Origin: Candidatus Anderseniibacteriota bacterium
Lineage (GTDB): Bacteria; Patescibacteriota; Andersenbacteria; UBA10190
DNA: 64,000 nt
NCBI GenBank assembly: GCA_040900375.1
Contig: JBBDZC010000003.1
Coordinates: 64,586-128,585 of the forward strand
Direction: 5' to 3'
Shown here: piece after piece, positions 10,834-52,897 of the stretch
Layout of the letters: the number at the start of each line of letters is the position of its first letter
Numbering within the stretch: the stretch's first letter is position 1
Translations under genes and position numbers: made by a program
The notes under the pieces: model-generated
Database searches by the model: none
Told to the model about the DNA's origin: nothing
The model's input: the letters and a program-made list of their open reading frames with translations, nothing else

Positions 10834-12732
10834 ATGTGCGGCATTACAGGTAAAGTTTCATTTGGTAGTTCAGACATAACTACTGCCGATATAGATCGTA
10901 TGAATAAGGCCGTAGCTCACCGTGGTCCGGACGATGCTGGCATGTATATCTCGCCGGACCACCGGGTTGGCCTGGGCCATCGGCGCCTTGCCATCCTAGA
11001 CCTTACCTCAGCAGGGCGCCAACCTATGCGGTATCGCGACCGGTATGTAATTGTATTTAATGGGGAAATATACAATTTCCAGCAAAAACGTGAGGAACTT
11101 GAAAAAGAAGGGTACCGTTTCAAGTCGCATACCGATACCGAAGTTATTCTCGCATTATATGACAAGTACAAGGAGGGATGCCTTCGGCACTTGCGCGGCA
11201 TGTTCGCCTTTGCTATTTACGACGAACAGAAGCAAACTTTATTCTGCGCCCGTGACCGCGTTGGTAAAAAACCTTTTAAGTACTATTGGGGTAACGACGT
11301 TTTTGTGTTTGCCTCTGAACTCAAAGCTATCCTCACGCAGAGCGAGTATCAGCGAGAGCCCGATTATCTGGCCATCCACCACTACTTAAGCCTGCAGTAT
11401 GTCCCCGCGCCTTTGACGGGGTTTAAAGACATTAGGAAACTCAAACCCGGCCATTTTTTACAGCTCGATATCAAAAAACAAAAGCTGACTGTGAACCGAT
11501 ACTGGCAGCTTGATTTCCGCCACAAACAAACAAAAGCAGCGGCTGATTGGAAAAAAGAAATTATCGACAAGCTGGATGAAGCTACACAGCTGCGCCTTAT
11601 TGCGGATGTGCCGTTGGGAGCCTTCCTCTCGGGCGGCATTGATTCGTCAGCGGTTGTGGCGCTGATGAGTCGGCACAGTGCGAAGCCAGTCAAAACGTTT
11701 TCCATTGGGTTTGAGGAGGCAGGATATAACGAGCTACCGTTTGCCCGGATGGTCGCGAAAAAATTCAAAACCGATCATACGGAGTTTATTGTACGACCCG
11801 AAACAATCGATATTTTGCCAGAGCTGGTGGGGCTGTATGAAGAGCCGTACGCCGACAGCAGCGCTTTACCAACCTACTACTTGAGCAAGCTTACTCGTCA
11901 ACACGTGACAGTTGCCCTTAATGGAGATGGTGGCGATGAGAACTTCGCTGGCTATCCATGGTACGGCGTCCAGAAGTTCACTGACTGGTACCAGAAGCTG
12001 CTGCCGCTCCATAAGCTCACCGCTGCGCCAGCTACCCGTGTGATCAGTCGTCTCTATCCCAACACCTTTACTGATCGAATGCTGCGGTTTGCCCACACAC
12101 TCGACCAACCTACGGCCGCACGCTACTTGAATTACATCTGTTACTTCACCGATGTGCAGAAATCTGACCTGTATGGTCCCCAGCTGCGTCACTTTTTGAA
12201 GGAAGTCAGCTCTGCTGAAATATTAGCCGAGCACTTCGCAGCGGTACCCGATGCTCATCCGGTTGATGAAGCCCAATATGTTGATATCAACACTTATTTG
12301 CCTGACGATCTGCTAGTAAAAGTAGATATCGCGACTATGGCGGTAGCATTGGAAGGCCGGTCACCGTTCCTCGACCATGAATTTCTTGAACTTAGCGCGA
12401 GCATTCCCGCCAACCTTAAACTGCGAGGACTGAACACAAAAAAGTACATTCTCAAGCAAGCTCTCCACGATATATTACCCGACGAGGTATTATATCGACC
12501 CAAAAAAGGGTTTGGCGTGCCCATCGGTACATGGTTTCGCAGTGACTTAAAGAATTACTTGCGGAGCGTTGTTCTCTCTCCACGATCCCTCAGCCGTGGT
12601 CTTTTTGAGGAGGAAGCTATTCAACGCCTCATCGCCACACACAATACTACTACGATTAACCACGCTCCACGCTTATGGGCCTTGTTAACACTCGAATTGT
12701 GGTGGCGGCGGTATTTTGATAGTCAGAAGTAG
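10834..12732 (+). CDS. asparagine synthase (glutamine-hydrolysing) family amidotransferase
   Basis: 632 aa. The N-terminus 'MCGITG' carries the Ntn Cys2 nucleophile. 'RGPDDAG', 'LAILDL' and the PP-loop 'SGGIDSS' are present. The start is 3 nt after the upstream gene's stop. Confidence 0.9.
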   Translation: MCGITGKVSFGSSDITTADIDRMNKAVAHRGPDDAGMYISPDHRVGLGHRRLAILDLTSAGRQPMRYRDRYVIVFNGEIYNFQQKREELEKEGYRFKSHTDTEVILALYDKYKEGCLRHLRGMFAFAIYDEQKQTLFCARDRVGKKPFKYYWGNDVFVFASELKAILTQSEYQREPDYLAIHHYLSLQYVPAPLTGFKDIRKLKPGHFLQLDIKKQKLTVNRYWQLDFRHKQTKAAADWKKEIIDKLDEATQLRLIADVPLGAFLSGGIDSSAVVALMSRHSAKPVKTFSIGFEEAGYNELPFARMVAKKFKTDHTEFIVRPETIDILPELVGLYEEPYADSSALPTYYLSKLTRQHVTVALNGDGGDENFAGYPWYGVQKFTDWYQKLLPLHKLTAAPATRVISRLYPNTFTDRMLRFAHTLDQPTAARYLNYICYFTDVQKSDLYGPQLRHFLKEVSSAEILAEHFAAVPDAHPVDEAQYVDINTYLPDDLLVKVDIATMAVALEGRSPFLDHEFLELSASIPANLKLRGLNTKKYILKQALHDILPDEVLYRPKKGFGVPIGTWFRSDLKNYLRSVVLSPRSLSRGLFEEEAIQRLIATHNTTTINHAPRLWALLTLELWWRRYFDSQK

Positions 12733-12737
12733 AAAGT

Positions 12738-13469
12738 ATGCAGGAGTTGATAAAAAAAATTCTGCCGGCCAATCTCATAAACGGAATATTGGCCATCACC
12801 ACACGGCTTGCCGTCCGATACTATTATTGGAGATATCCGCCGCTTATTATTCGCCCTGGGACGACTGACCTTGGTGTTTTCCAGAGCATTTTTGTTTTGC
12901 GGGAACTGAAGCTGCCCACACCTACGTCCCCTAAGCTCATCATTGATGCCGGCGCGTATACAGGCTTTTCTACCTTGTACTATGCAACTATCTTTCCCCA
13001 AGCCACTGTTATTGCTGTCGAGCCTGAGGCTTCCAACTATGCCGTGCTCGTGCAAAATACGCGGCTACTCCCGAACGTCAGGACAACCCAAGCGGGCTTG
13101 TGGCCAGTTGATGCTTATTTACAAATCATTGATAGAGAGACCGGAAAATGGGGCTTTTCGGTACGGGAGGTGGAGGAGGCGGATGAATACGATGTTAAGG
13201 CTGTTACTATGGATACTATTTTAAAATATTCAGAGTCTACGATCATAGACATCTTGAAGCTGGATATTGAAGGGGCAGAAAAGGAACTATTCAGCCGGAA
13301 CTACCAATTATGGATAAACAAGGTGAATACGATTGTTATCGAACTGCATGATCGGATTAATCCTGGGTGTACGCAAGCTCTTATGGCAGCAGTCGATCCC
13401 AAGCTGTGGAATCACTCCACGGCAGGTGAAAAAGTCATTCTTGTACGCAAGCATCCAATAACGCAGTAA
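12738..13469 (+). CDS. FkbM family SAM-dependent methyltransferase
   Basis: 243 aa. 'DAGAYTGFSTLYYATIFPQATVIAVEPEASNY' and 'DILKLDIEGAE' match the FkbM-domain methyltransferase signature. Confidence 0.75.
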   Translation: MQELIKKILPANLINGILAITTRLAVRYYYWRYPPLIIRPGTTDLGVFQSIFVLRELKLPTPTSPKLIIDAGAYTGFSTLYYATIFPQATVIAVEPEASNYAVLVQNTRLLPNVRTTQAGLWPVDAYLQIIDRETGKWGFSVREVEEADEYDVKAVTMDTILKYSESTIIDILKLDIEGAEKELFSRNYQLWINKVNTIVIELHDRINPGCTQALMAAVDPKLWNHSTAGEKVILVRKHPITQ

Positions 13470-15399: not shown

Positions 15400-16515
15400 C
15401 ACAGTTTTGAATATTTCAATACTGCGCCGAATTGCCGTCTGCGCCTCGCAGTGGGCCATGACAAATTCGCGGGCGCGTACTCCAAAGCGTTCCTGCAGCT
15501 CTTTTGCTTCTAGCACGTCCGTTATTGCTTGGCGCAGGTCCGCCGGCCTCGGTGTACTTAAGTACCCGCTCACCTTATGATCGATTATTTCGTTGATGCC
15601 GCGGACGTTGTATCCAACCACCGCCAAGCCGCAGCTCATGGCTTCGAGCAGCGCCTTAGGGCTATTTTCATACTGTGATGGCGCGGCAAACACAGCGTAC
15701 TGAGATAGCTCCTGAGCCAGTTGGCGGGCAGGAACATTCCCGCGGAAATGCGCTAGTATCTTATGCTCTTCTGCAAACCGCTGTAGCTGTCCTTGCATGC
15801 TGCCAGAACCATAGATGGTCACTGCTACAGGCAGCCCAATCACAGCCTCAAGCAAGTCCCGCGGATTTTTTTCTGGTTCCAGCCTCCCGACGTACACGAT
15901 GCTGTTTGGTATTTTTTTTACCGGCATCGGGCGGAACAGCGACGTATCCACAGGATTGCGTATCAGCTCAATGCGGCCAGGATCAATAGCATAGCGTTCC
16001 GTAACATAGTCCTTCGCAAATTGGGATGTAACAACGATATAATCAGCCGCGCGGTACGTAATCCATTCCAAAAAAAGAGCCAATCGCTTGGTGAGAGCCC
16101 CCTTAAGTCCTGGCGCGAAGTCCGACAATGCCCACTGATATCCGCAGTGAAGGACAAACTTTTTCCGGTACAAAACCTTCGCTAGGGCGGCAGCCCATGC
16201 GCCCTCCATTTGCGCAGAGTAGTACAGGTCAGTTCCTTTTAACTCACGGCGGTAGGCAAACGGAATCAACAGGCTGTAGACCCAGGCGGGAAGCGGCCAT
16301 TTTTTTGGCAGCACAACAATATTTTTTTTAAGAAAGTCAGTATAGGCGAGATCCTCCCGCCCGCCGTAGGATAACAAGTAGAAGGTGTTGAAATGGTCGG
16401 CCCAGGCATTGTAGGTCACGGTACCAGTTCCACCGTCAAGCCAGCCGCGTTCTTTCCACAGCCGGACGGATGTGCCGCTCGTTAAGAACAATGCCGCATT
16501 CATGGACATATACAT
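15385..16515 (-). CDS. GT4 family glycosyltransferase
   Basis: 376 aa. 'YVGRLEPEKNPRDLLEAV' and 'SQYENSPKALLEAMSCGLAVVGYNVRGINEII' are GT4 motifs. It converges with the plus-strand GT2 with a 15 nt overlap. Confidence 0.85.
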   Translation of the reverse strand: MYMSMNAALFLTSGTSVRLWKERGWLDGGTGTVTYNAWADHFNTFYLLSYGGREDLAYTDFLKKNIVVLPKKWPLPAWVYSLLIPFAYRRELKGTDLYYSAQMEGAWAAALAKVLYRKKFVLHCGYQWALSDFAPGLKGALTKRLALFLEWITYRAADYIVVTSQFAKDYVTERYAIDPGRIELIRNPVDTSLFRPMPVKKIPNSIVYVGRLEPEKNPRDLLEAVIGLPVAVTIYGSGSMQGQLQRFAEEHKILAHFRGNVPARQLAQELSQYAVFAAPSQYENSPKALLEAMSCGLAVVGYNVRGINEIIDHKVSGYLSTPRPADLRQAITDVLEAKELQERFGVRAREFVMAHCEAQTAIRRSIEIFKTVLAQK

Positions 16516-17790
16516 CTAGTGCTGAATGAACGAGCAATTCAATTTAACGCGGCCCCGACGAAATGATTCAAGCAACCCTTCTAAGTCTTGCCAAAACACT
16601 TCTGCCACGCGGGCCGGTGTAAAGCGGGACATTACTAGTTCATAACCGCTGGTTGCTATCCGTTCCAGTTCCTGCGGCCGATTCTGATAGTATGTAATTT
16701 TGGCGACGAGGTCTTTCAAATTTGCGTCTTTGTATGCGATGTAGTTTACGCCGTCCTGAAAGCCAATCAGCGTGTACATAGGGTCATCAATCCCTACAAG
16801 TATGGACCCGCATAAAATTCCCTCGAACAACTTCATGGAGGGTATTCCCGTGCGCTCTTCGGGGGTACAAAACATCATGTGCTGGTTGTACTTTTCGACA
16901 ATATTAAAACTGTAGTAAGGCAGCTTATACCCCAATACACTGGTCAGTACCCACGCAGGGAACGCGCGTTTGACCACGCGGGTAAATGCACTGTCTCCTG
17001 GTTGAATTTTCCTCATCTTCTCGACCGCAACCGCGTGGGGGTAAATGTAGGTCGCCAGGGTGTCCTGGGTTTTATCCTGGTTATCGAACAGCGCCTGTCG
17101 CATGGGGTTAAGGGCTGTTCCTCTCCCGTAGTATTGCACGTATGCTGCAGAAGAAGGCACGCTCATGGGTCCGCACGCGAAGCAGGTGTTCTTGCGCTGC
17201 TGAAATGGCTGCTTGCGCTTAAACCGCTTCCCTTCAAAAGTAAAAGGAAGTAAGTACGTTTTGCTGGACGCTCCAGGAAAGTAGTGGGTAAAGTAGTCGT
17301 TACGGGCTACGTCTCCTTCCGCCACAACAAACCCATATGATAAGCGCGAAAAGAAATTAGCGATCTTCTCCGTGCGCAAATGGTAGTGGCTCAAATGCAC
17401 CAGCACAATCCCCTTGTAGTCACACACTGTACTGTTAAAATCTGTAAACCCAAACACTAGAACAATGTCTTCATCTGGGTTCAACTGCATGTGGCTTATG
17501 TATGACGCGTGTTGCTGGCTATTTACCGCATTGAGGCGTTTCCAGAGCCAAAACTCAAGTGAGGTGCATAGCTTCAAGAGTATAGGCACACGTGCAATTG
17601 TTTTTTCAAACAGTGTGGTCTGATAGAAAGACGATTGCGTGCCGTCTGCCAGAAACGCAACCTCCCGCCCCTGTGCCGGCGCCTCTCGCCATAAATAAGT
17701 GTACTTCTGGTGCTGGGGAAACCGGAACAGCCAATTAAACACCATGTTGCCGCATTGATTGGCGTGTGGATTTAGGATAACAAGCCGCAT
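16516..17790 (-). CDS. CgeB-like glycosyltransferase (Glyco_trans_1_2-type C-terminal domain), paralog of 21889..23202
   Basis: 424 aa. The C-terminal 'EGILCGSILVGIDDPMYTLIGFQDGVNYIAYK' resembles the GT4-like nucleotide-sugar site. The protein is similar end to end to ORF 21889..23202, for example in the shared ending '...FWQDLEGLLESFRRGRV' versus '...FWKDLEYFSNVFSRGKRV'. Confidence 0.6.
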   Translation of the reverse strand: MRLVILNPHANQCGNMVFNWLFRFPQHQKYTYLWREAPAQGREVAFLADGTQSSFYQTTLFEKTIARVPILLKLCTSLEFWLWKRLNAVNSQQHASYISHMQLNPDEDIVLVFGFTDFNSTVCDYKGIVLVHLSHYHLRTEKIANFFSRLSYGFVVAEGDVARNDYFTHYFPGASSKTYLLPFTFEGKRFKRKQPFQQRKNTCFACGPMSVPSSAAYVQYYGRGTALNPMRQALFDNQDKTQDTLATYIYPHAVAVEKMRKIQPGDSAFTRVVKRAFPAWVLTSVLGYKLPYYSFNIVEKYNQHMMFCTPEERTGIPSMKLFEGILCGSILVGIDDPMYTLIGFQDGVNYIAYKDANLKDLVAKITYYQNRPQELERIATSGYELVMSRFTPARVAEVFWQDLEGLLESFRRGRVKLNCSFIQH

Positions 17791-17849: not shown

Positions 17850-18986
17850 TCATGGTTTGGCGGCTATCAGGCTCTGCAATAGCGCCTGGTACTTTTTGAT
17901 TACGGCTGGCAGGTTGTGGTGCTCCCGTGCATACTGGTATGCACGTTCCGACATTGTACTGCGCAGTTCCCCACGGCTCAATATTTCGCCAATGTCTGCG
18001 GTCAGCCGCAAAAAATCACCTCCGGCCGCCTTTCCAAATGCATACGTGTGCAAGATGTTATCGGGATTCACCTGCAGCGCTGCGATCGGCACTCCCCATT
18101 TAGCTGCCTGCACGTACGTGTTCGGGAAGCCTTCCTGGAGGGATGTGTTCACGAACAGCAGTGCCTTCTGAAAGTACCCATCGATTTCCGCAAATGGGAC
18201 CTGTGAGCGGACGGTAATATTACTGTGTTCTGCCAAAGAATCCTGCAGTGCAAGAGGGTCGGAGTTAGTAACGAGCATAAATTTTTGATGCGGGAAATGT
18301 TCCGCGAGGCGGATAAGAATCTCCGGTTGTTTCGAGGGCACGAGCCGTCCCACCCACAGGAGGTATTCCCTGCCCGGCGCAGTGCCGGCATGCGGCGGCT
18401 CAACGGGATACATAGTGTTTATAGGCATGGCCTTGATACCCATATTCTTCTGAAACGCCAATCGCTGTCCTTTGTGTTGGCATACAACGGCATCAGCTGT
18501 GCGTAGGGCATAGGAAAATAACCAATTGATGTACCACGGGTGGCTGGCAAAGAAGCTACCGTCACTGTCCCGGTCATGGGCTGATGAGTATATAAATGCT
18601 CGGCCCAGAAGCCCCTTAGCCACCAGCGCGACTTTACCGGCAAACGAACCGCCGCCACGGACAATATACACGTCCGCGGATGTTTTTTTCATCGCCCGCC
18701 ACAGCTTCCAAAAATCTGCTAACCCATCGATGAAAATATTGCGCCGGCCGCATTTCACCGTCTTATAAATAAGGACCCTGCATTCCCCGATTAGGATTTC
18801 CTCCTGCGAAGGCTGCTCGTTGTAAAAATCACCTACCAAGAAACTCACCGCCATGCTGGTATGCTGCGCTAGACCAGTTCCTAAATAGTACTGTTGGATT
18901 TCCGAGCCGCTAAACGACTGCGCATGTATATCATCAGGGTGAAACAGCCGGTACGCGTATAAAGAAACAATGCACACGTTGGTCAT
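17850..18986 (-). CDS. GT4 family glycosyltransferase (start re-assigned to internal Met)
   Basis: 'LLWVGRLVPSKQPEILIRLAE' and 'NTSLQEGFPNTYVQAAKWGVPIAALQV' are GT4 motifs. The longest ORF begins at 19136, but that would overlap the upstream methyltransferase by 153 nt. The Met at 18986 ('MTNVCIVSLYAY') instead forms a canonical ATGA stop/start overlap with that gene. Confidence 0.8.
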   Translation of the reverse strand: MTNVCIVSLYAYRLFHPDDIHAQSFSGSEIQQYYLGTGLAQHTSMAVSFLVGDFYNEQPSQEEILIGECRVLIYKTVKCGRRNIFIDGLADFWKLWRAMKKTSADVYIVRGGGSFAGKVALVAKGLLGRAFIYSSAHDRDSDGSFFASHPWYINWLFSYALRTADAVVCQHKGQRLAFQKNMGIKAMPINTMYPVEPPHAGTAPGREYLLWVGRLVPSKQPEILIRLAEHFPHQKFMLVTNSDPLALQDSLAEHSNITVRSQVPFAEIDGYFQKALLFVNTSLQEGFPNTYVQAAKWGVPIAALQVNPDNILHTYAFGKAAGGDFLRLTADIGEILSRGELRSTMSERAYQYAREHHNLPAVIKKYQALLQSLIAAKP

Positions 18987-19759
18987 TTTTTTATCCTTAC
19001 AATAACGTCGAGCCCGCCCGGCATAGTACCAAAGTATATGTCCATGATGTTCGTAGCCCAGGCTCGTTTTCTTCGGAAGATGAACGCTGTGGCGACCCGC
19101 ATCAGCTTGACTGCCGCCTCTCCGGCGAGAGCGCATACGTTATTAAGCACATAAATCAGCTCAGGAATTAAAGGGAGCGTTTTGAGGGCAGCAATGTTTT
19201 CCACAACTATATTCGCGATAAAGAAAGGGGCCGCAAAGCTGGTGTTGGTCCCTTGCAGCAGCAAGATTTCGTCATGCTTAAACATTTCTAAGTACCAGTA
19301 GCGCGTCAGCCGTTGGAAATCATACGGCACACCATGCTCCCCCAGCAGAAAGGGCGTGGAGATATAAACCAATGCCCCGTTGCGCGCTACTCGACGGATT
19401 TCGCGTATGGCATCCTCAATGTGCATCGTATGCTCAAGCACTTCGGTCGCAATAACCCCATCAAATGAATTATCGGGAAATGGAAGCCTATCAGCGGATG
19501 CAACCACATCAGCGGCTGAACGCTTGGTATCAAAATCAACACCGATATATTTGTCGATCGCAAGGTCCCGTAGCAGTTTCAGAAAAGGCTTGTAGCCGCA
19601 ACCGACATCAATAATCCGCATGGGTTTTGACTCTTTTGCTAACAAAACCAGAAACTGCCGGAATGCCTGGAGATGCGCCCTGGTTGTGACGTACGAAAAA
19701 TCGAACAGGTTCGGCGCTGTCCGTTGACGTATAATCTTCCTTGCATCGCGCGGATTCAT
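18983..19759 (-). CDS. class I SAM-dependent methyltransferase
   Basis: 258 aa. Motif I 'RIIDVGCGYKPF', 'DGVIATEVLEH' and 'NGALVYISTP' fit the Methyltransf_11/25 fold. Confidence 0.8.
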   Translation of the reverse strand: MNPRDARKIIRQRTAPNLFDFSYVTTRAHLQAFRQFLVLLAKESKPMRIIDVGCGYKPFLKLLRDLAIDKYIGVDFDTKRSAADVVASADRLPFPDNSFDGVIATEVLEHTMHIEDAIREIRRVARNGALVYISTPFLLGEHGVPYDFQRLTRYWYLEMFKHDEILLLQGTNTSFAAPFFIANIVVENIAALKTLPLIPELIYVLNNVCALAGEAAVKLMRVATAFIFRRKRAWATNIMDIYFGTMPGGLDVIVRIKK

Positions 19760-20628
19760 TCCTCCACCTTTGCGGCGGCTCCCTTAATGCCGATAAAAAG
19801 TAAGTATGGCGAGGTCAAGCTGTTCTCAAAAACATGGCAGCGCCGCCAGAGGGGGTTGGTAAGCGCCTGCGCCAGTTGCAGCCCTTTGACTATCATCATG
19901 CGGGCCGGGCCGCGGCCTTGCAGAATACCCATATTCAACACGCCATAGTAACCGCAGTACTCCTGCGCAACGTTGTGCTTTTGAAACAAGCGGCAGAACG
20001 TATTCTTTTGCATAATCGTCAGGTTGTGCTTTGCAATAAGGTCAGGCGCCAACGACTTTACCAGCGGGTAGTAAACACCGCGCAGCCGTGGGATCATTAT
20101 GAGCAGCTTGCCCTGGGGCTTGAGCACGTTGAGATGCGCCGCGATGGCCTCGTCTACATTGCTAAAGTGTTCGACCACGCCAAACGAAATCACCCGATCA
20201 AATGCATCTTTGTAAGCTTGCTGGAACGCAGGGTCAAACACATCGGAAAAAATACAGTTGTTTTCGGCGATGCCATCGCGTTTGAACTTGCCGCGCACTA
20301 CCTCAACGCCCACTCTCGTGTACTCCACGCCGAAGGGAACATACTGGTAGCGGCGCGCAAAATCGAGCAATCGCTCTCCAGGAGCGCACCCTACCTCCAG
20401 AACAGTTTTTGTCTTGTCGGGCTCAAAAAACCGGTCAGAAATCCTATAAAATATTTCCCGGGCCGACGGCTTAGTGAGCCAGGTCCGGAACTTGCCTGTT
20501 GACTGCCGGGTGTGGGCGTCGGCCCTTTGCGCATTGATAGACTCCCAATACGAACGCGACGCAATGTCCGTACGCCGCTCGTTATTCCGGCTGTAAGAGG
20601 CGTTTAGCATAGCCAGATAAACCCACAA
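19756..20628 (-). CDS. class I SAM-dependent methyltransferase
   Basis: 290 aa. Motif I 'VLEVGCAPGERLLDFA', 'DRVISFGVVEHF' and 'QGKLLIMIP'. Its stop overlaps the upstream methyltransferase start as ATGA. The N-terminus may be shorter than the ORF. Confidence 0.75.
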   Translation of the reverse strand: MWVYLAMLNASYSRNNERRTDIASRSYWESINAQRADAHTRQSTGKFRTWLTKPSAREIFYRISDRFFEPDKTKTVLEVGCAPGERLLDFARRYQYVPFGVEYTRVGVEVVRGKFKRDGIAENNCIFSDVFDPAFQQAYKDAFDRVISFGVVEHFSNVDEAIAAHLNVLKPQGKLLIMIPRLRGVYYPLVKSLAPDLIAKHNLTIMQKNTFCRLFQKHNVAQEYCGYYGVLNMGILQGRGPARMMIVKGLQLAQALTNPLWRRCHVFENSLTSPYLLFIGIKGAAAKVEE

Positions 20629-21892
20629 AAAATACGAATGAAACCAGCATGACTGCCATAATTGCCCCCGTTACCTCAAGTAGGGGAATCATAATCAGAT
20701 ACAGCAGAAAAGCCAAGGCGGCCATACAGACAGCCCAGTACGAGTAAAACGTATGCCCACGCACCCCCTGGGCTACCACCAAAGCTCCCCGTACGTTAAC
20801 AAATGTATAGAGGATTGCGTTCACCGAGAACAACAGGATCCACAGAAATTTCATCGGATACTCGTCGCCGTACAAAAGAACTGTGATGTACATGGCCAAG
20901 CCATTAAGAAGCAGCAATGGAATGAAGCCAGTAAACATGAGTCTGTTTAATCGGCGGTTTATCTCGAGCTTATCTGACCGACTGCTGGCAGTGGGCAGAA
21001 ACACCTTAATAAACACAGAGCTCACGCGTCCTAATACAATGAGCGAAGCACCATAGTAAACGGAGTAAATCCCGACGCTTTCAACGTCAAGGTATCTGTT
21101 TAGGAAAAATCGGTCGCTGCCCCACAGGATAAAAAGCGCCACAGATCCAAGTACACTAAATGCACCATACGAGAGCATCTGCTTAAGCGCTACCGTATCC
21201 CAAGAAGAGGGCTTAAAGTAGTGCCAATGAGTTAGCAGAACAGCCGCTGCATACGCAAGTAAACCGCCAGCGAGCGCCCCAATGTAGTCGGTGTACGTTG
21301 TGCCTGCGCCGGCGGCATACAGCGCTAAAAAAATCATGGCTCCAACAGTGGCATATACGATATCCAGCGCCGCCTGGAGTTTGAACTTAAGCAGCCCTCG
21401 CAATACGCACTCCATGCCGGTTTTAAACACAGTAACAATGCAGTAGAACAGGGCAATAGTATACACGGCGGAGCTTAAGCTGAGTATTTCTGTTACCTGG
21501 TTTCGAACAAAGTATGCAACGACCAATGTTAGTGCCGAAAAAAACAACGTTCCGCCAGCGAAGGTGGTAATCGTCCTGCGTCGCTCCGTTGTACTCCGTT
21601 TTTCCGGTAAATATTTTATCACGCTAGCTTGTAATCCAAAAAACATCGGGTACGGAAGAACATTCGCCACCGCAAACACAAGTGCTGCTCTCCCGTACTC
21701 GGCCGGCCCCAGCGCCCGCACGGCGAGGATTTGCACCACAGCAAACAACAACCCTGATACAATACTGCTCAGCCCCACGTACCCAAGATTACTCACAAAG
21801 CCCCTCATGTCGGCGGTAAGGTCATGCTTGTAGAGCCGGCGGTTTACCTTATCACCTACACGCCACACCCAGTCAGTGAATACTTGCTTCAT
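20582..21892 (-). CDS. wzx: oligosaccharide/polysaccharide flippase, MOP superfamily (Wzx-like)
   Basis: 436 aa with about 12 hydrophobic helices. The N-terminal region 'LGYVGLSSIVSGLLFAVVQILAVRALGPAEYGRAALVFA' is typical of Wzx / polysaccharide-biosynthesis-protein family members. Confidence 0.7.
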   Translation of the reverse strand: MKQVFTDWVWRVGDKVNRRLYKHDLTADMRGFVSNLGYVGLSSIVSGLLFAVVQILAVRALGPAEYGRAALVFAVANVLPYPMFFGLQASVIKYLPEKRSTTERRRTITTFAGGTLFFSALTLVVAYFVRNQVTEILSLSSAVYTIALFYCIVTVFKTGMECVLRGLLKFKLQAALDIVYATVGAMIFLALYAAGAGTTYTDYIGALAGGLLAYAAAVLLTHWHYFKPSSWDTVALKQMLSYGAFSVLGSVALFILWGSDRFFLNRYLDVESVGIYSVYYGASLIVLGRVSSVFIKVFLPTASSRSDKLEINRRLNRLMFTGFIPLLLLNGLAMYITVLLYGDEYPMKFLWILLFSVNAILYTFVNVRGALVVAQGVRGHTFYSYWAVCMAALAFLLYLIMIPLLEVTGAIMAVMLVSFVFFVGLSGYAKRLLQPE

Positions 21893-23202
21893 CGTACAAA
21901 TGAACAGCGAAAAACCCGCTTGCCTCGGGAAAATACATTAGAAAAATACTCCAAATCCTTCCAAAAAATTTGCGCGACTGCCTCCGGATTAAAATGCTCG
22001 CGCACGAAGGTGCAGCCCGCATCCGCAATACGTTGGAGCTCCTGAGGATGCGCTTGGTAGTATTCAACTATTTTCAGCAGGTCGTCCAAGTCATTCTGCT
22101 TATAAGTGATGTAGTGCACGCCTGGAACAAGCCCCAGCGCCGTATACATGAGATCATCAATAGCCACCAGCGCCGTCCCACAGGCCATGCCTTCAATGGC
22201 ATTCACAGACGGCAACCCGCATGCTTCCTCTGGACTGACAAACATGCGGTAGTCATTATACTTTTCAACGATGTCAAACTGGAAGTAGCGCGTTAGGTGG
22301 TTCGGAAACAGCTTAGTGAGAAGTATGTGCGGCAGATGCTTTTTTGCCCAACGCGCCAGAGCAGAGTCTTGCGACTGAATCTGGCTGATGCGGCGTACGT
22401 CGTCAAAATCAGATATATACGAATCAATCCACGGCGTAACTTCGTTCCTTTTTTGGTAAATCAGGTTCCGCATAGGGTGGATGGAAGGATCTTTTCCAAA
22501 AAATCTTTCATATTCCGGCCCCACTCGGCTTGTCGTTCCGACCGCGAAGCATTTGTTAACCCTTTTGGCAAACGGTTTTCGCTTCTTAAACCGCGAGGGA
22601 AAACTGAATGGCAAATGGTACACCTGCTTCTCCTCTGGAAAGAAATACCGGAAGTAACCATTGGAAACGAGATTATTCTCAGCCACGAGTATGTTGTGCT
22701 TGATGCGCCGCACATTCTCCGCAATTTTTTCCGTGCTCCTAAAGTAGTGAGTCAGGTGCGTAAATACTAAACCGCTGTATTGGTGGAAAGTGTTGACCTC
22801 TGTATTGCGCGGGAATTCATCCAGACTTGTATGGGCGAAATTCAATATAATATCGTGTTTTGGATCGAGCGCTCCGACACCGAAGTACACCTTGCATTGG
22901 AGCGGGTTTAGACCATTCAGGAGACACCACAACACATATTCCACGTACGTAAAAATTCGTCCGAGATAGGTGAAACGCACACCGAGTTCATTCAGTGATG
23001 AACGGGTCCCGTCAAGCAGGATGCCAACATCCTTGGTCTTATTTTTTAAGTAGTAATCCCGGACGAATGCATACTTTGTAATGTGGGGGTTGTGGATCAA
23101 CGCATTCCGCACGGTTTTTGCATAAAAGTGGACATGCGGGTTGGCCAGAATGAGGCGCATGTTGTATGTTCCGTTGCGATCAGCGCAAAGACAGCCCGCC
23201 AC
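21889..23202 (-). CDS. CgeB-like glycosyltransferase, paralog of 16516..17790
   Basis: 437 aa. 'VNAIEGMACGTALVAIDDLMYTALGLVPGVHYITYK' is present, and the protein is colinear with ORF 16516..17790. Confidence 0.6.
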   Translation of the reverse strand: MAGCLCADRNGTYNMRLILANPHVHFYAKTVRNALIHNPHITKYAFVRDYYLKNKTKDVGILLDGTRSSLNELGVRFTYLGRIFTYVEYVLWCLLNGLNPLQCKVYFGVGALDPKHDIILNFAHTSLDEFPRNTEVNTFHQYSGLVFTHLTHYFRSTEKIAENVRRIKHNILVAENNLVSNGYFRYFFPEEKQVYHLPFSFPSRFKKRKPFAKRVNKCFAVGTTSRVGPEYERFFGKDPSIHPMRNLIYQKRNEVTPWIDSYISDFDDVRRISQIQSQDSALARWAKKHLPHILLTKLFPNHLTRYFQFDIVEKYNDYRMFVSPEEACGLPSVNAIEGMACGTALVAIDDLMYTALGLVPGVHYITYKQNDLDDLLKIVEYYQAHPQELQRIADAGCTFVREHFNPEAVAQIFWKDLEYFSNVFSRGKRVFRCSFVR

Positions 23203-23204
23203 TA

Positions 23205-24266
23205 CTACGATGCGCCAGCCTGATTGCCCTCGCGGCCATAGGTGAAACTGATCGCCGAGACAAGCCGCGGCGCAAACAGGTTATTTATGTAGAGCGATAA
23301 GATTTGCTGGACAGCCTGACGGACAGCAAGGGAAAAATCCTCGTGCTGCATAATTCCCTCATATAATCTTTTGTATGCATCACTTCGGAAATTATAGTGC
23401 CCCGCGATGACGCTGCAGAGATATTTGTTGGATGCCTTATTATGCAGCAGCCATTTTTCCCATTTCCGGCTGCGGTACGCCACTTCCAAAAACTCACTTA
23501 TATCCAGTCCGTACTGGTTCGCACGCAGCAACGTAAGTTGTGTTTGGAGCACCCCAAACTGTGGCGCAACATTTACAGCATCAACAACCCCGCGCCTGCG
23601 CTGTATCTCGGCCGCAGACAGGTAGTCGGCATTGTGCTCCTTGATTGCAATATCGTACTTGTCGGCCAACAGGCGCAGCTTTTTTACATAGTCTTCGTGA
23701 AAGAGCCCTTCCTGGCGTACTTCCTTAATGATGGTGCCCGTCTGCAGCACAACAAAATGCGGCTTCATGAAGCTGGTGAAAAATTTCATCTGCTCTTCCG
23801 CTCGAAGTGCATCTTCAACATTCGTGCCGGTATTCTCGTCCGTACCGATTTCAATGAGCGTATGCGGCGATTTGCGTTGAATGTATTCAATTGCTTTCTT
23901 TGATTCTTCTAAAATGCGTTCGTACCCCCCGGGACAAAAACAGAAATCTACGTGAATGAGGTCGAAGCCATGTTCTAAGTCAGTATCAATTGTTACATAG
24001 GTGTCCGTGAGGTCAAAAATACTATTGTGCCCCGGTCCGCAGTGGTCGCGGCAAATGTATACATTGGCAGCGGGGTACTTTGCCTTCATTCTATCGAGGT
24101 ATTCACGATACTCACGTGTATGCAAAACGTAGCCTCTATCATAATCAACCTGATTCTTGGAAGCTATTAACATGAGTGGACAATTCTCCTGCGCAGAATA
24201 CTCATAGACTGCTGCAATTACATCCTCACTCATTGGCCCTATTCCCAGTGGACTGATTGCTGGCAT
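23205..24266 (-). CDS. GatZ/KbaZ-family TIM-barrel protein (tagatose-bisphosphate aldolase-related; putative sugar-phosphate aldolase or 4-epimerase)
   Basis: 353 aa. 'NCPLMLIASKNQVDYDRGY', 'YICRDHCGPGHN', 'IHVDFCFCPG' and 'IEIGTDENTGT' are colinear with E. coli GatZ segments 'SPILIEATCNQVNQDGGY', 'LGGDHLGPNAW', 'IHLDCSMSC' and 'YVIGTEVPVPGG'. It is about 70 aa shorter than GatZ. Confidence 0.55.
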   Translation of the reverse strand: MPAISPLGIGPMSEDVIAAVYEYSAQENCPLMLIASKNQVDYDRGYVLHTREYREYLDRMKAKYPAANVYICRDHCGPGHNSIFDLTDTYVTIDTDLEHGFDLIHVDFCFCPGGYERILEESKKAIEYIQRKSPHTLIEIGTDENTGTNVEDALRAEEQMKFFTSFMKPHFVVLQTGTIIKEVRQEGLFHEDYVKKLRLLADKYDIAIKEHNADYLSAAEIQRRRGVVDAVNVAPQFGVLQTQLTLLRANQYGLDISEFLEVAYRSRKWEKWLLHNKASNKYLCSVIAGHYNFRSDAYKRLYEGIMQHEDFSLAVRQAVQQILSLYINNLFAPRLVSAISFTYGREGNQAGAS

Positions 24267-24269
24267 AGA

Positions 24270-24785
24270 TTAACTGTTGACTTGTACAGTTGGCTCTTCT
24301 CGAAGCTCTCTAGCAAAGAAGAGGTCTTTAATATAAAAACACGCCTCCGCCACGGCTCCCTCGGCGCTTTGTGCTTGGGTAACGTAGTCGGCAGCCTGCA
24401 GCGCCAGTGGATGCGCATTGGCGGGCGCAATGCTGTAGGCTACTATCTCGAATACGCGTGCGTCGTATATACCATCACCCATGTACACCATTGAATCCAA
24501 GTCACCTAATTGTGAGAAATATGCGTGTCGCTCAAGCTCCGACACCAGCGTCACGGGCAGCTCCATATCATCCATACGCTTCTTAGTAATGTTCCAGCCT
24601 CGCTTATCGGCGGAAATCGCTTCTAGGGTAACGTAGCGACGAAGCATCTTTACGCCATCAGCATCGTGCGGACCAAAAATCTTGGCGAATTTCCCCTCAC
24701 TTGTATAGAGAAACTGGCCAGTTGTGAATACTCCATCGACATCAAACATAACTCGTGTGATTGGCGATGTGGGCAAGCGCTTCAT
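24270..24785 (-). CDS. KdsC-family HAD-IIIA sugar-acid phosphate phosphatase
   Basis: 171 aa. HAD motif I is 'MFDVDGVFT', with 'YMGDGIYD' and 'AHPLALQAADYVTQAQSAEGAVAE'. These match E. coli KdsC ('LDVDGVL', 'YVGDDLID', 'AHPLLIPRADYVTRIAGGRGAVRE'). The true start is probably the Met at 24749. Confidence 0.75.
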   Translation of the reverse strand: MKRLPTSPITRVMFDVDGVFTTGQFLYTSEGKFAKIFGPHDADGVKMLRRYVTLEAISADKRGWNITKKRMDDMELPVTLVSELERHAYFSQLGDLDSMVYMGDGIYDARVFEIVAYSIAPANAHPLALQAADYVTQAQSAEGAVAEACFYIKDLFFARELREEPTVQVNS

Positions 24786-24798
24786 CTCGTTATCCTAC

Positions 24799-25665
24799 TC
24801 AATTTTTGATTAACTTCACAAGTGCTCTTCGCATTACTGCTTCTGGGGGTGCCTCACCCGTATACAACTTAAACTGATGCAACGCCTGTATTAAGGCCAT
24901 ATCTGAACCGCGCAAGACCCGCTTGCCCAGCTTGGCACCGGTCGCTATGAGTCGGGTTTCATAAGGTGTGGCAACTACATCCATAATAAATTCAAAATTG
25001 CGGAGGGCTTTCTCGGTTATCGGCATCTCATGTACTTCTGGAACCATCCCCACGGGCGTAGCGTTAATGAGGATGTCAGCGGACGCGCGCTGTCGCTGAC
25101 TCCAGGGCAGTGTACCTTGAAGCTGCCATTGCTTCACCAGAGCCCGACTCTGTGTGTCGGAACGGCTCGTGACTATAGTGTGGCGAACATTTAGTCTCGC
25201 CAGAGCGCAACAGATTGCTTGAGCAACACCTCCTGCTCCAAGTATAAGAATGCTTTTATTCTTAATGCCTCTAATACCTTGAAGCATCTGACGAGCCGCC
25301 GTGGTGTCGGTATTGTAGCCATGTAGCCTTCCTTTTTTGTTAACAACCGTATTCACAGCCCCCACCTCTCGGGCTAGTGGATCGAGCCTGTCCAAATACT
25401 TTACGATTTCTTGCTTAAACGGCATAGACACGCCGCACCCACGGATATCCAGCGCCCGTATTCCTGCTATCGCATCAACTAAGGCGTGCCTATCAACCCG
25501 GCAGGCCTTGTAGATAGCATCAATACCTAATTGTTCAAAGGCAGCATTGAATACTGTAGTGCCGGTATTGCTGGGACGTTCAGCAATAGAAATGTAGACG
25601 GCGGTTCCCTTATTAAGCTTGGACTTTCTCATGCTGTAAGGCCTGTGCCAGCTGCAGGCGGCCAT
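24799..25665 (-). CDS. shikimate/quinate 5-dehydrogenase family (AroE-like) NAD(P)-dependent oxidoreductase
   Basis: 288 aa. The substrate-domain motifs are 'VYISIAERPSNTGTTVFNAAFEQLGIDAIY', 'GCGVSMPFKQEI' and 'GAVNTVV...GYNTD'. The Rossmann motif is 'ILILGAGGVAQAI'. Confidence 0.75.
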   Translation of the reverse strand: MAACSWHRPYSMRKSKLNKGTAVYISIAERPSNTGTTVFNAAFEQLGIDAIYKACRVDRHALVDAIAGIRALDIRGCGVSMPFKQEIVKYLDRLDPLAREVGAVNTVVNKKGRLHGYNTDTTAARQMLQGIRGIKNKSILILGAGGVAQAICCALARLNVRHTIVTSRSDTQSRALVKQWQLQGTLPWSQRQRASADILINATPVGMVPEVHEMPITEKALRNFEFIMDVVATPYETRLIATGAKLGKRVLRGSDMALIQALHQFKLYTGEAPPEAVMRRALVKLIKN

Positions 25666-27211
25666 AGTAGTACAACAGCCGATTGAATGGTTCGGTGTGC
25701 AGCGGCGACATATTAAGAAAAATTAAGGCGGTAAGAGTATCAATTTTTTTCTGGTCATAGCCGTATTCCAGCATAGCTTGTAAAAAAACCGTCCGTCTTT
25801 CTGTCAACGCACCGGAAATCGACAGCGACAAATCCACGTCCGTACCTTTCTGCCTGAAGCTAAACATGTTCTTCTTAATAGTGTGGTAAGGCACGAGCAT
25901 TCCTCCGTTCAGCTTCGCTAAGTCATAATATAGATCTCCGTATTCTAAGAGACCGGCAAAATCCTGCCGCCAATCAAGCAGAACGAATTGTTGGTCTGTG
26001 CTGTCGCTGACAAGTATATTGTCAAATTGCAGATCGCCGTGGAATGGCGAGGGGATGCCGTTGTACAACGTCTGCCAGTCAATTTGGGAAAGCAGCTCTT
26101 CAAGCGCCGGAAGGTGTTCGCCATTCACGGTGCATTCACTGTCACTGCTGCCTGTTTGCACGTCATACTGCAGCAGCCGCTGATGCGTTTTATCATAGTA
26201 AAACTGCTGGCAGCGGCGACGGAAATCTGCATACTGCTCATCGGATAGCGTAAGGGGACGCCAGAGGTTGCTACGCAGCCAAACGAGCAAATCCATCACG
26301 AGGTGAGGGTCTTCCGTTTGGTACATCGTCAGACCAGGCATCTTCTTATAGGCATAAAAGTGTGGTGCTTCATCAGTGATTTTAGGTACAACTGCTGACA
26401 TGTGCCTCGCCTTCGCCACGCGGTGGGCAGCCACCTGTGCGTCGCCAAAGTACTTTATTACTTTTTCTCCGACAAAATACAAAAACTCGCCTTTTTTTGA
26501 AAAATCAAAGCTTTCCTGTTGGTCCGCAAGTTCACGAATTGCCAGCCGGTAGCCCTCAACATTGCCCGTGTCGAACCACGTAAATTCACGTGCCTGCAAA
26601 CCTGGTTCAATAAGCGATCGAAATCCATTTGATACCTGTAGCTCTCCCGCAGCAAGCGTAGGTGTACCCGCCAGAGCCTCCCAGAATGTGTTGTAGTCCC
26701 TCACGCCAGCCAAGCCAATAAATCCATACGTATTGCTGGTGGTTACCTTATCAACCATATCTCGCACATATCCGTCCTCAATGGTAACGGTATTGTATTG
26801 CGTTGGATCAACTACTGGCGCTACACCAAACCAATTCGAATCCGGTGGTGGTATGTTCTCTTCTACTAACGTGTCGACCGTGGTAAATATGAACGGCACC
26901 TGCAAATATTCATGGCACTGTAATAATGAATAGCCGGGCCCAGAGCCTTTACCGGTAATTTTATCAACTTCAACGTAGTGAATAGTCCGCTCTGGATGGG
27001 CGATGGACAAGTAAGCCTGTAGTTTCTCTTTCTCATATCCTACTGCCATAACAATCACGATTTCCGCCGGAAACTTGTGCAAAATATGGGAAATTACAGC
27101 CTGCGAACCAAGCGGTAGCATAGCCTTATTCACACCACTCTTCAGTTCACCCAATCGCGTTCCCTGGCCAGCAGCAAGTATGGCGATTTTATATGTCCCT
27201 ATGCTAGACAT
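25613..27211 (-). CDS. bifunctional sugar-phosphate (or phospho-alcohol) nucleotidyltransferase (N-terminal) / APH-type small-molecule kinase (C-terminal)
   Basis: The N-terminal 'KIAILAAGQGTRLGE...KAMLPL' is the RmlA/LicC-type G-x-G-T-R-L signature. The C-terminal 'FHGDLQFDNILV' and 'LLDWRQDFAG' are the Brenner HxDxxxxN and D-W-x motifs of the aminoglycoside/choline/anomeric-sugar kinase fold. The start is set at Met 27211, which is ATG-adjacent to the cupin gene's stop. The longer ORF to 27274 would overlap that gene by 71 nt. Confidence 0.7.
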   Translation of the reverse strand: MSSIGTYKIAILAAGQGTRLGELKSGVNKAMLPLGSQAVISHILHKFPAEIVIVMAVGYEKEKLQAYLSIAHPERTIHYVEVDKITGKGSGPGYSLLQCHEYLQVPFIFTTVDTLVEENIPPPDSNWFGVAPVVDPTQYNTVTIEDGYVRDMVDKVTTSNTYGFIGLAGVRDYNTFWEALAGTPTLAAGELQVSNGFRSLIEPGLQAREFTWFDTGNVEGYRLAIRELADQQESFDFSKKGEFLYFVGEKVIKYFGDAQVAAHRVAKARHMSAVVPKITDEAPHFYAYKKMPGLTMYQTEDPHLVMDLLVWLRSNLWRPLTLSDEQYADFRRRCQQFYYDKTHQRLLQYDVQTGSSDSECTVNGEHLPALEELLSQIDWQTLYNGIPSPFHGDLQFDNILVSDSTDQQFVLLDWRQDFAGLLEYGDLYYDLAKLNGGMLVPYHTIKKNMFSFRQKGTDVDLSLSISGALTERRTVFLQAMLEYGYDQKKIDTLTALIFLNMSPLHTEPFNRLLYYYGRLQLAQALQHEKVQA

Positions 27212-27686
27212 GTTCTGAGGCAATTTTGCCATTGGGGCGGCTGTAGTCATCCGCGAGCCGCACAACATCATCAAGGTGGTCAGTTGATGCTTCCACCAGC
27301 AGCACGTCTGTCAGGGCTTCAACCCGATGCACTGCCGGCGGCATGACCTTAATAACCTTGCCGGCAGTCATGTCAATGCTCCGGATGTTTTTGCCTTTGG
27401 ATGACTGGTAGTAAAACCGCACTTTGCCGAACAAAATGCAATTATGCTCTGCCTTTTGATTATGGTACTGCAGGCTCGTCTTTGCCCCCTTTTTTAGATA
27501 AATGATTTTGAGCGCATAAGGCACTTCCTTACCTTTTGCCAGCCATAGCTCAAAACCCCAGGGCTTTTTCACTTGCTTTGCCTCGCTGAAATCAGTAATG
27601 CGGATTTTCTTCGGCAGACCTTGAGGAGCCTTTCCCATGCTTTTCTTACTTACTTTGCTTTTAATGTAACTGATAATATCAGGCAT
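27204..27686 (-). CDS. cupin-domain sugar(-phosphate) isomerase (mannose-6-phosphate isomerase type II-like cupin)
   Basis: 160 aa. 'KPWGFELWL...KTSLQYHNQKAEH' matches the cupin_2 / ManC C-terminal isomerase pattern. Confidence 0.55.
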   Translation of the reverse strand: MPDIISYIKSKVSKKSMGKAPQGLPKKIRITDFSEAKQVKKPWGFELWLAKGKEVPYALKIIYLKKGAKTSLQYHNQKAEHNCILFGKVRFYYQSSKGKNIRSIDMTAGKVIKVMPPAVHRVEALTDVLLVEASTDHLDDVVRLADDYSRPNGKIASEHV

Positions 27687-42095: not shown

Positions 42096-42160
42096 GCTGC
42101 AAGGGTAAAGTTTACCCTGCATCTTTGCAAAATAGATCCCTTCGGTGCGAAGATCAGAGA

Positions 42161-50064: not shown

Positions 50065-50093
50065 GTCTTTAAAACTACCGTAATCGTGACCGT

Positions 50094-52845: not shown

Positions 52846-52897
52846 GTAGGATATAGTTACTCGACCGATCACTATACTCTTAGGGGCTATAGGACCG

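Follow-up and report, generated by a model that had tools for sequence, protein, structure and literature searches.

A conserved five-gene module predicted to make an activated sugar donor in an envelope-glycan locus of a Candidatus Anderseniibacteriota bacterium

Gene layout of the module

We analysed a stretch of 64,000 nucleotides (nt) from a Candidatus Anderseniibacteriota bacterium (GenBank assembly GCA_040900375.1, contig JBBDZC010000003.1, positions 64,586 to 128,585), referred to below as the window, with a focus on five adjacent genes that probably serve a single pathway for an activated glycan precursor. The five open reading frames (ORFs) run head to tail on the minus strand from position 27686 to position 23205, and neighbouring frames overlap or lie no more than 13 nt apart; all are present, contiguous and at the coordinates given in a preliminary description that had been made from the sequence alone. 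The first gene of the operon (27204–27686) encodes a cupin of 160 residues, a stand-alone protein resembling type II phosphomannose isomerases (PMI) and a putative ketose/aldose isomerase. Its stop codon and the ATG of the second gene share an overlap of 8 nt, ATGTCTAG, at 27204–27211. This second gene (25613–27211) codes for a fusion protein, here called NT-kinase, in which an RmlA/GalU/LicC-like nucleotidyltransferase (NT) domain (26516–27211, about residues 1–232) precedes a C-terminal domain of the APH/choline-kinase fold (25613–26515, about residues 233–532), predicted to be a small-molecule kinase.

The third gene specifies an AroE-like, NAD(P)-dependent oxidoreductase of the shikimate-dehydrogenase family, assigned below to the SdhL class. 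Its ORF extends to 25665, and the most likely true start is Met12 at 25632, which yields a protein of 277 residues (24799–25632) and matches the 277-residue protein on record. With this start, the overlap with the 3′ end of the NT-kinase gene amounts to 20 nt; counted from the first ATG at 25665, it is 53 nt. A gap of 13 nt separates the AroE-like gene from that of a KdsC-like HAD-IIIA sugar-phosphate phosphatase (24270–24785, 171 residues), and 3 nt further on begins the gene for the GatZ-like protein (23205–24266, 353 residues), a short TIM barrel of the GatZ/KbaZ fold in the class-II-aldolase superfamily.

In the public record of the same contig the gene calls are 160, 539, 277, 171 and 342 residues long (P0001 and P0241, 100 % identical). 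There, the NT-kinase starts at 27232 (539 residues); we favour 27211, because the family alignment places the N-terminus of the homologues two to four residues ahead of the YKV motif. Similarly, the recorded start of the GatZ-like protein lies 11 codons later (342 residues), and we favour the long form starting at 24266, since the N-terminal stretch ISxLGIGPMS is conserved in the family. Between positions 15000 and 28200, neither promoter-like motifs (9 versus 16 expected) nor terminator-like motifs (11 versus 13.7) exceeded their frequency in shuffled sequence, and no signal for an operon break was found inside the module; a terminator or promoter splitting the five genes had been named in the preliminary description as evidence against a common pathway.

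Enzyme families of the five proteins

The cupin scores 27.9 bits against PF01050 (MannoseP_isomer; cut-off 23.6) and matches solely the C-terminal PMI domain of TIGR01479, the model for bifunctional mannose-1-phosphate guanylyltransferase/PMI proteins (positions 351–466, the last 116). The motifs PWG, SLQxH..K.EH, HR and DDxxRxxDxYxR are conserved in 39 homologues encoded next to NT-kinase genes, and we take them to resemble those of type II PMI.

For the NT domain, NTP_transf_3 gives 31.8 bits (1.9e-7). A search of the Protein Data Bank (PDB) with the single NT-kinase sequence returned no matches; those reported here come from the family profile. This profile identifies RmlA (3hl3, 3e-10 over residues 5–223) and also GalU (3juj) and LicC (1jyk). 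Residues 129–231 match the sugar-binding half of several RmlA proteins (RmlA 139–246), and the LicC match is confined to residues 5–111. Invariant or nearly so in the family alignment are the LAAGxGxR loop, D154-K155 and W212-x-D214-T-G216, of which the latter two are presumably equivalent to the EEKP and WLDTG motifs of RmlA. Judged by these matches, the NT half resembles sugar-1-phosphate transferases of the RmlA/GalU type. The kinase domain reaches 22.6 bits with APH (PF01636), just below the cut-off of 23.2, and in the family alignment it retains the catalytic-loop motif HGDxxxxN and the downstream Asp motif DWRQD. The folds closest to it include choline kinases, ethanolamine kinases and LicA, and its identity to any choline kinase is 10–15 %. 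Anomeric kinases are known in the APH fold, namely MTR kinase, maltokinase and NahK.

The AroE-like protein, named shikimate dehydrogenase in the public record, lies at the NCBIfam thresholds for this family (NF001319, 252.8 versus 252; TIGR00507, 200.5 versus 200.2). Its best PDB match is the SdhL protein HI0607 of Haemophilus influenzae (1npy; 157 bits, 3.7e-45, residues 17–281), with which it shares the motifs RPSNxGTT and DVVAxPxET, and the context of the catalytic Lys and Asp (MPFK, NTD) is kept. In AroE, an SxS loop and the Tyr of a D-x-x-Y-x-P motif bind the shikimate carboxylate. The corresponding loop of the AroE-like protein reads RPSNTGT, and the position of the Tyr is occupied by Ala (DVVATPYET), as in HI0607. 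By these sequence features the protein belongs to the orphan SdhL class; the likeness to HI0607 is a resemblance and carries no functional assignment, and to our knowledge no physiological substrate of SdhL has been established. Within the 64-kb window there is no further shikimate-pathway gene. The shikimate-dehydrogenase family also includes a 5-ketofructose reductase that reduces a free keto-sugar (PDB 7cok; PMC7954740), which makes a sugar substrate for an SdhL-type enzyme credible; this reductase matches the AroE-like protein with 2.7e-30, no closer than ordinary AroE proteins do.

The HAD protein scores 63.1 bits with the KdsC model TIGR01670 (cut-off 106.95) and 59.6 with NF007019 (208), and it matches the KDN-9-phosphate phosphatase model NF058599 with 2e-11. 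Motifs I and IV (FDVDGV and GDGxxD) are conserved to at least 95 % in 51 homologues.

With PF08013, the GatZ-like protein obtains only 17.6 bits, below the cut-off of 26.7, over residues 14–108; precomputed PF08013 matches exist for many of its homologues. Since a sequence search against the PDB produced no significant match (best 3txv, E 0.32), its structure was predicted. The AlphaFold2 model has a pLDDT of 87.9, and Foldseek ranks 2fiq and 3txv on top (E 1.5e-12, TM 0.76), followed by class II fructose-bisphosphate aldolases at TM of about 0.5–0.6. The GatZ-type TIM-barrel fold is thus confirmed at the level of the predicted model. Escherichia coli GatZ and KbaZ epimerize fructose-6-phosphate to tagatose-6-phosphate at C4, and for GatZ a Zn site formed by His88, His257 and Glu171 was proposed in 2025, with Asp87 as base (PMC11907403). 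An hhalign alignment to E. coli GatZ (reference from NC_000913.3; probability 85.7 %) equates CRD74H75CGP with GGD87H88LGP and IHVDF with IHLDAS. By motif inspection, IGTD143E corresponds to IGTE171 and KEH211NADY to EAH257STDY of GatZ. Across 62 GatZ-like ORFs, which include both subtypes, Asp74, His75, His105, Asp107, Glu139, His211 and Asn232 do not vary; the residue at position 143 depends on the subtype, Asp in one and predominantly Glu in the other. Neither Lys279 nor Glu44 of GatZ, both close to the substrate, is conserved; they are replaced by Asn232 and Ile34. Members of the GatZ-like family are 331–353 residues long, compared with about 420 for GatZ. Taken together, sequence and model suggest that the GatZ-like protein is an active, metal-dependent retro-aldol/aldol enzyme, putatively a Zn-dependent epimerase or aldolase.

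These data bear on the family assignments of the preliminary description. Its mannose-6-phosphate-isomerase-like cupin and its fusion of a nucleotidyltransferase to an APH-type kinase were borne out, the former by a Pfam score above cut-off and intact PMI motifs, the latter by the NT score and the retained catalytic motifs, with APH just under its threshold. The oxidoreductase is of the shikimate-dehydrogenase family as described there, apart from a start that is probably at 25632; its presence in such a gene set, noted as unusual, can now be specified as that of an orphan SdhL-class protein that is replaced by another reductase in about a quarter of the loci. The KdsC-type assignment holds for the intact HAD motifs I and IV and falls short of the curated KdsC cut-off. 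Likewise, membership of the GatZ/KbaZ family was upheld by the predicted fold and not by the Pfam score, and loss of all metal and catalytic residues, which would have argued against a common pathway, is not seen: their counterparts are kept.

Conservation and neighbourhood of the module

The NT-kinase family is large, with 1983 matches among the candidates scored; grouping at 50 % identity (E up to 1e-30) gives 656 clusters or more. Almost all of its hosts are uncultured; they comprise bacteria of the candidate phyla radiation (CPR), DPANN archaea and members of many free-living phyla, among them SAR86, Pelagibacteraceae and a Legionella metagenome-assembled genome (MAG). A protein search of a plasmid collection found only NT-domain matches, in haloarchaea, and no full-length NT-kinase homologue. 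A phage collection contains a full-length homologue (30 % identity, E 6e-74) on a single unannotated contig, GenBank MH319741.1 at 16025–17551. The contig is labelled 'Marine virus AG-345-E15' and derives from single-cell amplification of seawater; its NT-kinase gene is either a virus-carried copy or part of a mislabelled cellular contig.

Scanning one genome per species yielded 175 loci with an NT-kinase gene, of which the best 80 were analysed with flanks of about 10 kb per locus; the full-flank set consists of those 48 that have 6 kb or more on each side. Almost all of this evidence comes from MAGs, and some loci are truncated. The 80 loci belong to CPR, DPANN, Omnitrophota, Gamma-, Alpha- and Deltaproteobacteria and Bdellovibrionota, as well as Planctomycetota, Verrucomicrobiota, Elusimicrobiota, Gemmatimonadota and Thaumarchaeota. 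Searched by tblastn with the window proteins, they contain the GatZ-like protein in 72, the cupin in 70, the HAD phosphatase in 65 and the AroE-like protein in 43 of the 80 cases. In the full-flank set, which spans more than 10 phyla, the figures are 47, 46, 42 and 31 of 48, respectively. The module is hence co-conserved in 80 species-representative loci, as shown by a gene-neighbourhood survey of the kind that the preliminary description had put forward. Homologues at E values of 1e-80 to 1e-180 and co-occurrence across phyla place the five ORFs far beyond chance.

In part of the loci, another reductase takes the place of the AroE-like protein. In an unbiased clustering of neighbouring ORFs, the AroE-like protein occurs in 46 of 81 loci and a module-embedded, FabG-like classical short-chain dehydrogenase/reductase (SDR) in 21, and the two never occur together. 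This mutual exclusion points to non-orthologous displacement and to a redox step that is integral to the pathway. Of the 48 full-flank loci, 43 have one or the other reductase, and 37 contain all five functions. (Single-linkage clustering had merged HAD, cupin, GatZ-like and NT-kinase sequences through fusion proteins, and these were relabelled by domain-wise BLAST.)

The set stays together in two or more gene orders, among them [AroE/HAD]–NT-kinase–GatZ–(SDR)–cupin and HAD–GatZ–x–cupin–NT-kinase–AroE. Moreover, natural fusions link all five components. NT-kinase is joined to GatZ in at least seven proteins (P0008, P0037, P0041, P0047, P0063, P0085 and P0362) and to the cupin in at least six (P0366, P0371, P0390, P0398, P0455 and L079), the cupin being the partner most often fused to it. 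AroE is fused to the cupin in P0289 and P0333 and to HAD in P0337, and HAD to GatZ in P0149 and P0197.

In the window, the operon goes on 3′ of the GatZ-like gene with a glycosyltransferase (GT), a Wzx flippase, two methyltransferases and more GTs. The first of these genes follows after 2 nt and encodes a Glyco_trans_1_2/GT90-like glycosyltransferase (21889–23202, minus strand; PF13524 6e-11, PF05686 2e-8), a candidate transferase for the product of the module. By tblastn, matches to it (24–43 % identity) occur near the module in nine other loci, immediately after it in L016, L018 and L064 and one or two genes further on in L019 and L025. The GT gene and that of a Wzx-type MOP flippase (20582–21892, minus strand; PF01943 1e-17) overlap by 4 nt. 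The flippase provides operon context and lies outside the conserved core; elsewhere, too, Wzx-like genes are found repeatedly near the module, whose usual flanks are glycosyltransferases, Wzx flippases and methyltransferases. Further downstream, a GT4 ORF (17850–19136) and the methyltransferase ORF upstream of it (18983–19759), both on the minus strand, overlap by 154 nt; the GT4 domain starts near residue 83, and the true start of this ORF is therefore probably downstream of the first ATG.

Several additional families were observed around the module in other genomes. In the order HAD–GatZ–x–cupin–NT-kinase–AroE, a protein of about 275 residues lies between the GatZ-like protein and the cupin. 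It has no Pfam or NCBIfam match and no equivalent in the window, occurs in 14 loci (including L059, L064, L068, L069, L071, L075, L078 and L082) that carry a divergent GatZ subtype with about 30 % identity to the window protein, and may be a sixth pathway component. A second NTP_transf_3 protein of about 240 residues, a paralogue of the NT domain that is sometimes fused to HAD, is found mostly in DPANN loci and in the bacterial MAG L015 (L006, on the contig of L003; L015, on the contig of L005; L024, L031, L033–L035, L051 and L072). An IMPase/FBPase-family protein (Inositol_P, 257–310 residues) stands beside the module in two of these contigs, and a protein of about 216 residues lacking a family match recurs near several of these loci. 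Together, the three may constitute a second activated-donor branch or supply a precursor.

A C-methyltransferase (Methyltransf_13/14, TylC3-like, about 382 residues) adjoins the module in 14 loci, for example L025, L046, L048, L068, L069 and L078, and frequent neighbours also include B12-binding radical-SAM enzymes and methyltransferases of class I; the product of the module is probably methylated further in many lineages. A family of about 372 residues with no Pfam or NCBIfam match lies near the module in 20 loci (representative L074:6210-7328). It clustered with the window methyltransferase ORF 18983–19759, probably via a shared domain, and could be a dedicated transferase.

The 64-kb window as a whole is an envelope-glycan locus with many GT4 and GT2 glycosyltransferases, GT-C/PMT-like and YfhO membrane proteins and epimerases/dehydratases; it also holds two AsnB-like amidotransferases, a pyrophosphatase and further NT genes. 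Apart from the module, two gene groups were observed. At 49327–52929 on the minus strand, genes for an SDR (49327–50064), an FAD_binding_4 protein (50094–51404) and a UbiA prenyltransferase with an N-terminal HAD domain (51391–52929) resemble the mycobacterial decaprenyl-phospho-arabinose route (UbiA/DPPR synthase, phosphatase, DprE1 and DprE2), which suggests that this CPR bacterium has a lipid-linked pentose donor; large ORFs of 630–900 residues without a Pfam match flank them. The AsnB-like glutamine amidotransferase/asparagine synthase paralogues (10834–12732 on the plus strand and 40218–42122 on the minus strand), together with an FkbM methyltransferase (12738–13469), suggest amidated uronic acids or similar modifications.

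A proposed route to an activated sugar and its alternatives

The five genes are adjacent and co-conserved, their products are fused in various combinations, and folds and catalytic motifs are intact; from this we infer all substrates, the order in which the enzymes act, which nucleotide is used and what the product is. On this basis, we propose that the five genes form one pathway for an NDP-activated rare sugar, destined for an envelope glycan made by the neighbouring transferases and flippase, and we assign this reading a probability of about 0.55. That the genes belong to a single pathway is strongly supported: a de novo route ending in a donor activated by the kinase and the nucleotidyltransferase, as suggested in the preliminary description, agrees well with the co-conservation and the fusions.

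In our model, the GatZ-like Zn enzyme would carry out retro-aldol/aldol chemistry on a central ketose phosphate, either C4 epimerization or formation of a C–C bond, and the PMI-like cupin would interconvert ketose and aldose. The SdhL-type reductase, or the SDR in its place, would catalyse an NAD(P)H-dependent keto reduction, and early in the route the GatZ-like enzyme and the reductase may establish an unusual configuration or carbon skeleton. In place of a mutase, the KdsC-like phosphatase would then act together with the APH-fold kinase to shift the phosphate from a distal carbon to the anomeric one, and the RmlA-like domain would finally join the sugar-1-phosphate with a nucleoside triphosphate.

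This logic is shared with the NDP-heptose route, in which GmhA acts as isomerase, HldE or HddA as kinase, GmhB as HAD phosphatase and HldE/HldC or HddC as nucleotidyltransferase. In both schemes a ketose-phosphate isomerase, an anomeric kinase and an HAD enzyme that removes the distal phosphate are followed by nucleotidyl transfer. The heptose pathway is treated in PMC10948575. A heptose-like model fits the module in view of the RmlA-like sugar-binding half of the NT domain, the recurrent fusion of cupin and NT-kinase and the existence of anomeric kinases in the APH fold. HldE likewise fuses kinase and nucleotidyltransferase, whereas in the module the NT domain precedes the kinase. The folds, however, differ throughout: a cupin instead of a SIS isomerase, an APH/choline-kinase fold instead of PfkB or GHMP, a KdsC-type instead of a GmhB-type HAD, and an RmlA-like NT instead of the cytidylyltransferase-like domain of HldE, with only a weak match to HddC (8.5e-4). 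In addition, the GatZ-like protein and the reductase have no counterpart in heptose synthesis. The module is therefore predicted to work like the NDP-heptose pathway and is not a member of it, as every fold-level feature of membership fails.

The upstream part recalls E. coli, where the tagatose-6-phosphate formed by GatZ/KbaZ is dephosphorylated by the HAD phosphatase HxpA (PMC11907403). The GatZ-like protein has the same fold, keeps counterparts of the proposed catalytic and metal residues and is likewise paired, sometimes fused, with a HAD sugar phosphatase. It is, however, shorter and only 14–16 % identical to GatZ, and its gene is part of a locus for glycan biosynthesis, not of a catabolic operon for galactitol or GalNAc. 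The downstream part shares the kinase-plus-nucleotidyltransferase principle with LicA/LicC (CDP-choline), AmgK/MurU (UDP-MurNAc salvage) and NahK, at identities of 10–15 % and with a weak match of MurU to the NT domain (3.4e-4). Whereas these systems salvage a preformed substrate, the module has three upstream biosynthetic enzymes.

Four observations weigh against an NDP-activated rare sugar made in this way. A net reduction is not needed to obtain an ordinary aldose from a ketose phosphate, and the reductase is unexplained in the simplest model. The second half of the GatZ-like protein is aligned to GatZ by motif inspection and global fold, with no significant sequence alignment. The HAD protein lies under the KdsC cut-off. 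Finally, in 11 loci of the full-flank set at least one component is missing within 6 kb.

The reductase is the weak point, and its presence suggests either a more oxidized precursor such as a diketo-sugar or a polyol as end product. As the simplest model leaves it unexplained, an alditol stays plausible, and we regard as the main, though less likely, alternative that the pathway epimerizes or isomerizes a ketose phosphate, dephosphorylates it, reduces the carbonyl, and phosphorylates and activates the resulting free alditol or other polyol to an NDP or CDP derivative. An integral reductase drawn from two unrelated folds amounts to a net two-electron reduction, most simply explained by an alditol, and both classical SDRs and shikimate-dehydrogenase-family enzymes reduce free keto-sugars (7cok; PMC7954740). 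The kinase is as close to choline/ethanolamine kinases and LicA as to any sugar kinase, and the NT domain resembles LicC in its N-terminal part. A precedent for this logic exists in Streptococcus pneumoniae, where the reductase Gtp1, the kinase Gtp3 and the cytidylyltransferase Gtp2 make CDP-2-glycerol for the capsule. As would be the case in the module, a reductase creates a free hydroxyl compound that is then phosphorylated and activated by a nucleotide; the pneumococcal system lacks an aldolase/epimerase, an isomerase and a phosphatase and is likened to the module by pathway logic. The gtp1–3 genes appear among the genes listed in PMC1391919. Yet once the carbonyl is reduced, the PMI-like isomerase has no obvious downstream role, although the cupin is the most frequent fusion partner of NT-kinase, and it is the hexose-binding half of RmlA, and neither LicC nor the IspD/TarI-type transferases for alcohol phosphates, to which the NT domain is similar in its C-terminal half. 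This half of the NT domain also argues against an amino-alcohol reading, in which the fusion is of the LicC–LicA type and activates choline, ethanolamine or a similar compound, produced by the other three enzymes, as a CDP head group. The kinase and LicC matches would suit it, as would the order of NT before kinase, which is that of LicCA fusions of spirochaetes. We consider it very unlikely: aminotransferases, decarboxylases and methylases are absent from the conserved core, sugar-phosphate enzyme families (PMI, GatZ and KdsC) account for all the partners, and the identity to any choline kinase is low, as given above. Among the products envisaged in the preliminary description, an unusual NDP-sugar, a CDP-alditol or a CDP-choline-type head group, the last is accordingly the least favoured, given the likeness of the NT domain, in its second half, to the part of RmlA-type sugar-1-phosphate transferases that binds the sugar.

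A more specific form of the sugar reading would account for the reductase by building a hexose bottom-up from trioses, bypassing the NDP-hexose 4,6-dehydratase/epimerase routes. The GatZ-like aldolase would join dihydroxyacetone phosphate to a 2-oxoaldehyde (for instance methylglyoxal or hydroxypyruvaldehyde) to give a 5-keto-ketose-1-phosphate; the HAD enzyme would strip the 1-phosphate, the SdhL-type enzyme or the SDR would reduce the 5-keto group in the manner of 5-ketofructose reductase, the cupin would convert ketose to aldose, and the fused kinase and NT domain would produce the NDP-sugar, an NDP-6-deoxyhexose or L-hexose. The ring of fusions GatZ~HAD, HAD~AroE, AroE~cupin and cupin~NT-kinase is compatible with this order of steps, and we rate the triose route as rather unlikely. 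A mutase-independent route to NDP-mannose, NDP-heptose or another common donor, in which the GatZ-like protein and the reductase do no more than supply the precursor in hosts of incomplete central metabolism (for instance sedoheptulose or fructose phosphates formed by aldol condensation), would agree with the type-II-PMI-like cupin, with the parallel between the isomerase, kinase, HAD and NT set and what is generally known of NDP-heptose synthesis, and with hosts that are mostly CPR and DPANN organisms of reduced metabolism, some DPANN loci adding an IMPase/FBPase-family gene. But such a route needs no reductase, the module is also found in Gammaproteobacteria, Planctomycetota, Verrucomicrobiota and Bdellovibrionota with complete sugar metabolism, and its position in variable glycan loci with methyltransferases and B12-radical-SAM genes suggests a specialized sugar, so that we hold a common donor to be unlikely. 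Barely credible, in our view, is that no single pathway exists and that an ordinary shikimate dehydrogenase lies beside the other genes by chance. The AroE-like protein barely reaches the NCBIfam cut-offs and bears the name shikimate dehydrogenase in the public record; against this stand the co-location with NT-kinase over more than 10 phyla, the AroE~cupin and AroE~HAD fusions, the replacement by an SDR within the module, the absence of any other shikimate gene in the 64 kb, the SdhL type and the Ala at the Tyr position.

Three further candidates were rejected. For a CMP-ulosonic-acid pathway, the core has no KdsA/NeuB or KdsB homologue. A cyclitol pathway lacks a sugar-phosphate cyclase and is conceivable only if the GatZ-like enzyme cyclizes. 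A catabolic tagatose/galactitol operon is at odds with the lack of phosphotransferase-system or transport genes and with a module embedded among glycosyltransferases and a flippase.

In the literature searched, with most subscription-journal papers outside the search, we found no description of this gene combination, as the preliminary description had presumed. No member of the NT-kinase and short GatZ-like families bears a functional name in the databases, and the public names are 'NTP transferase domain-containing', 'hypothetical' and 'shikimate dehydrogenase'. We take the module to be a form of nucleotide-sugar biosynthesis and not categorically new; in the literature searched, its enzyme types are not reported together.

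If five genes of one route to an NDP-activated rare sugar are indeed what we observe, they would add a second, non-homologous case of the isomerase–kinase–phosphatase–nucleotidyltransferase solution used for heptoses. The SdhL class, whose HI0607 structure was solved two decades ago, would gain its first physiological context, also if the triose route were true. A systematic mis-annotation would be mended: the name 'shikimate dehydrogenase' would cease to indicate that a CPR genome encodes aromatic amino acid synthesis. Ultimately, once the product is identified, a surface sugar or polyol shared by the envelopes of ultrasmall episymbionts and of marine bacteria would come to light.

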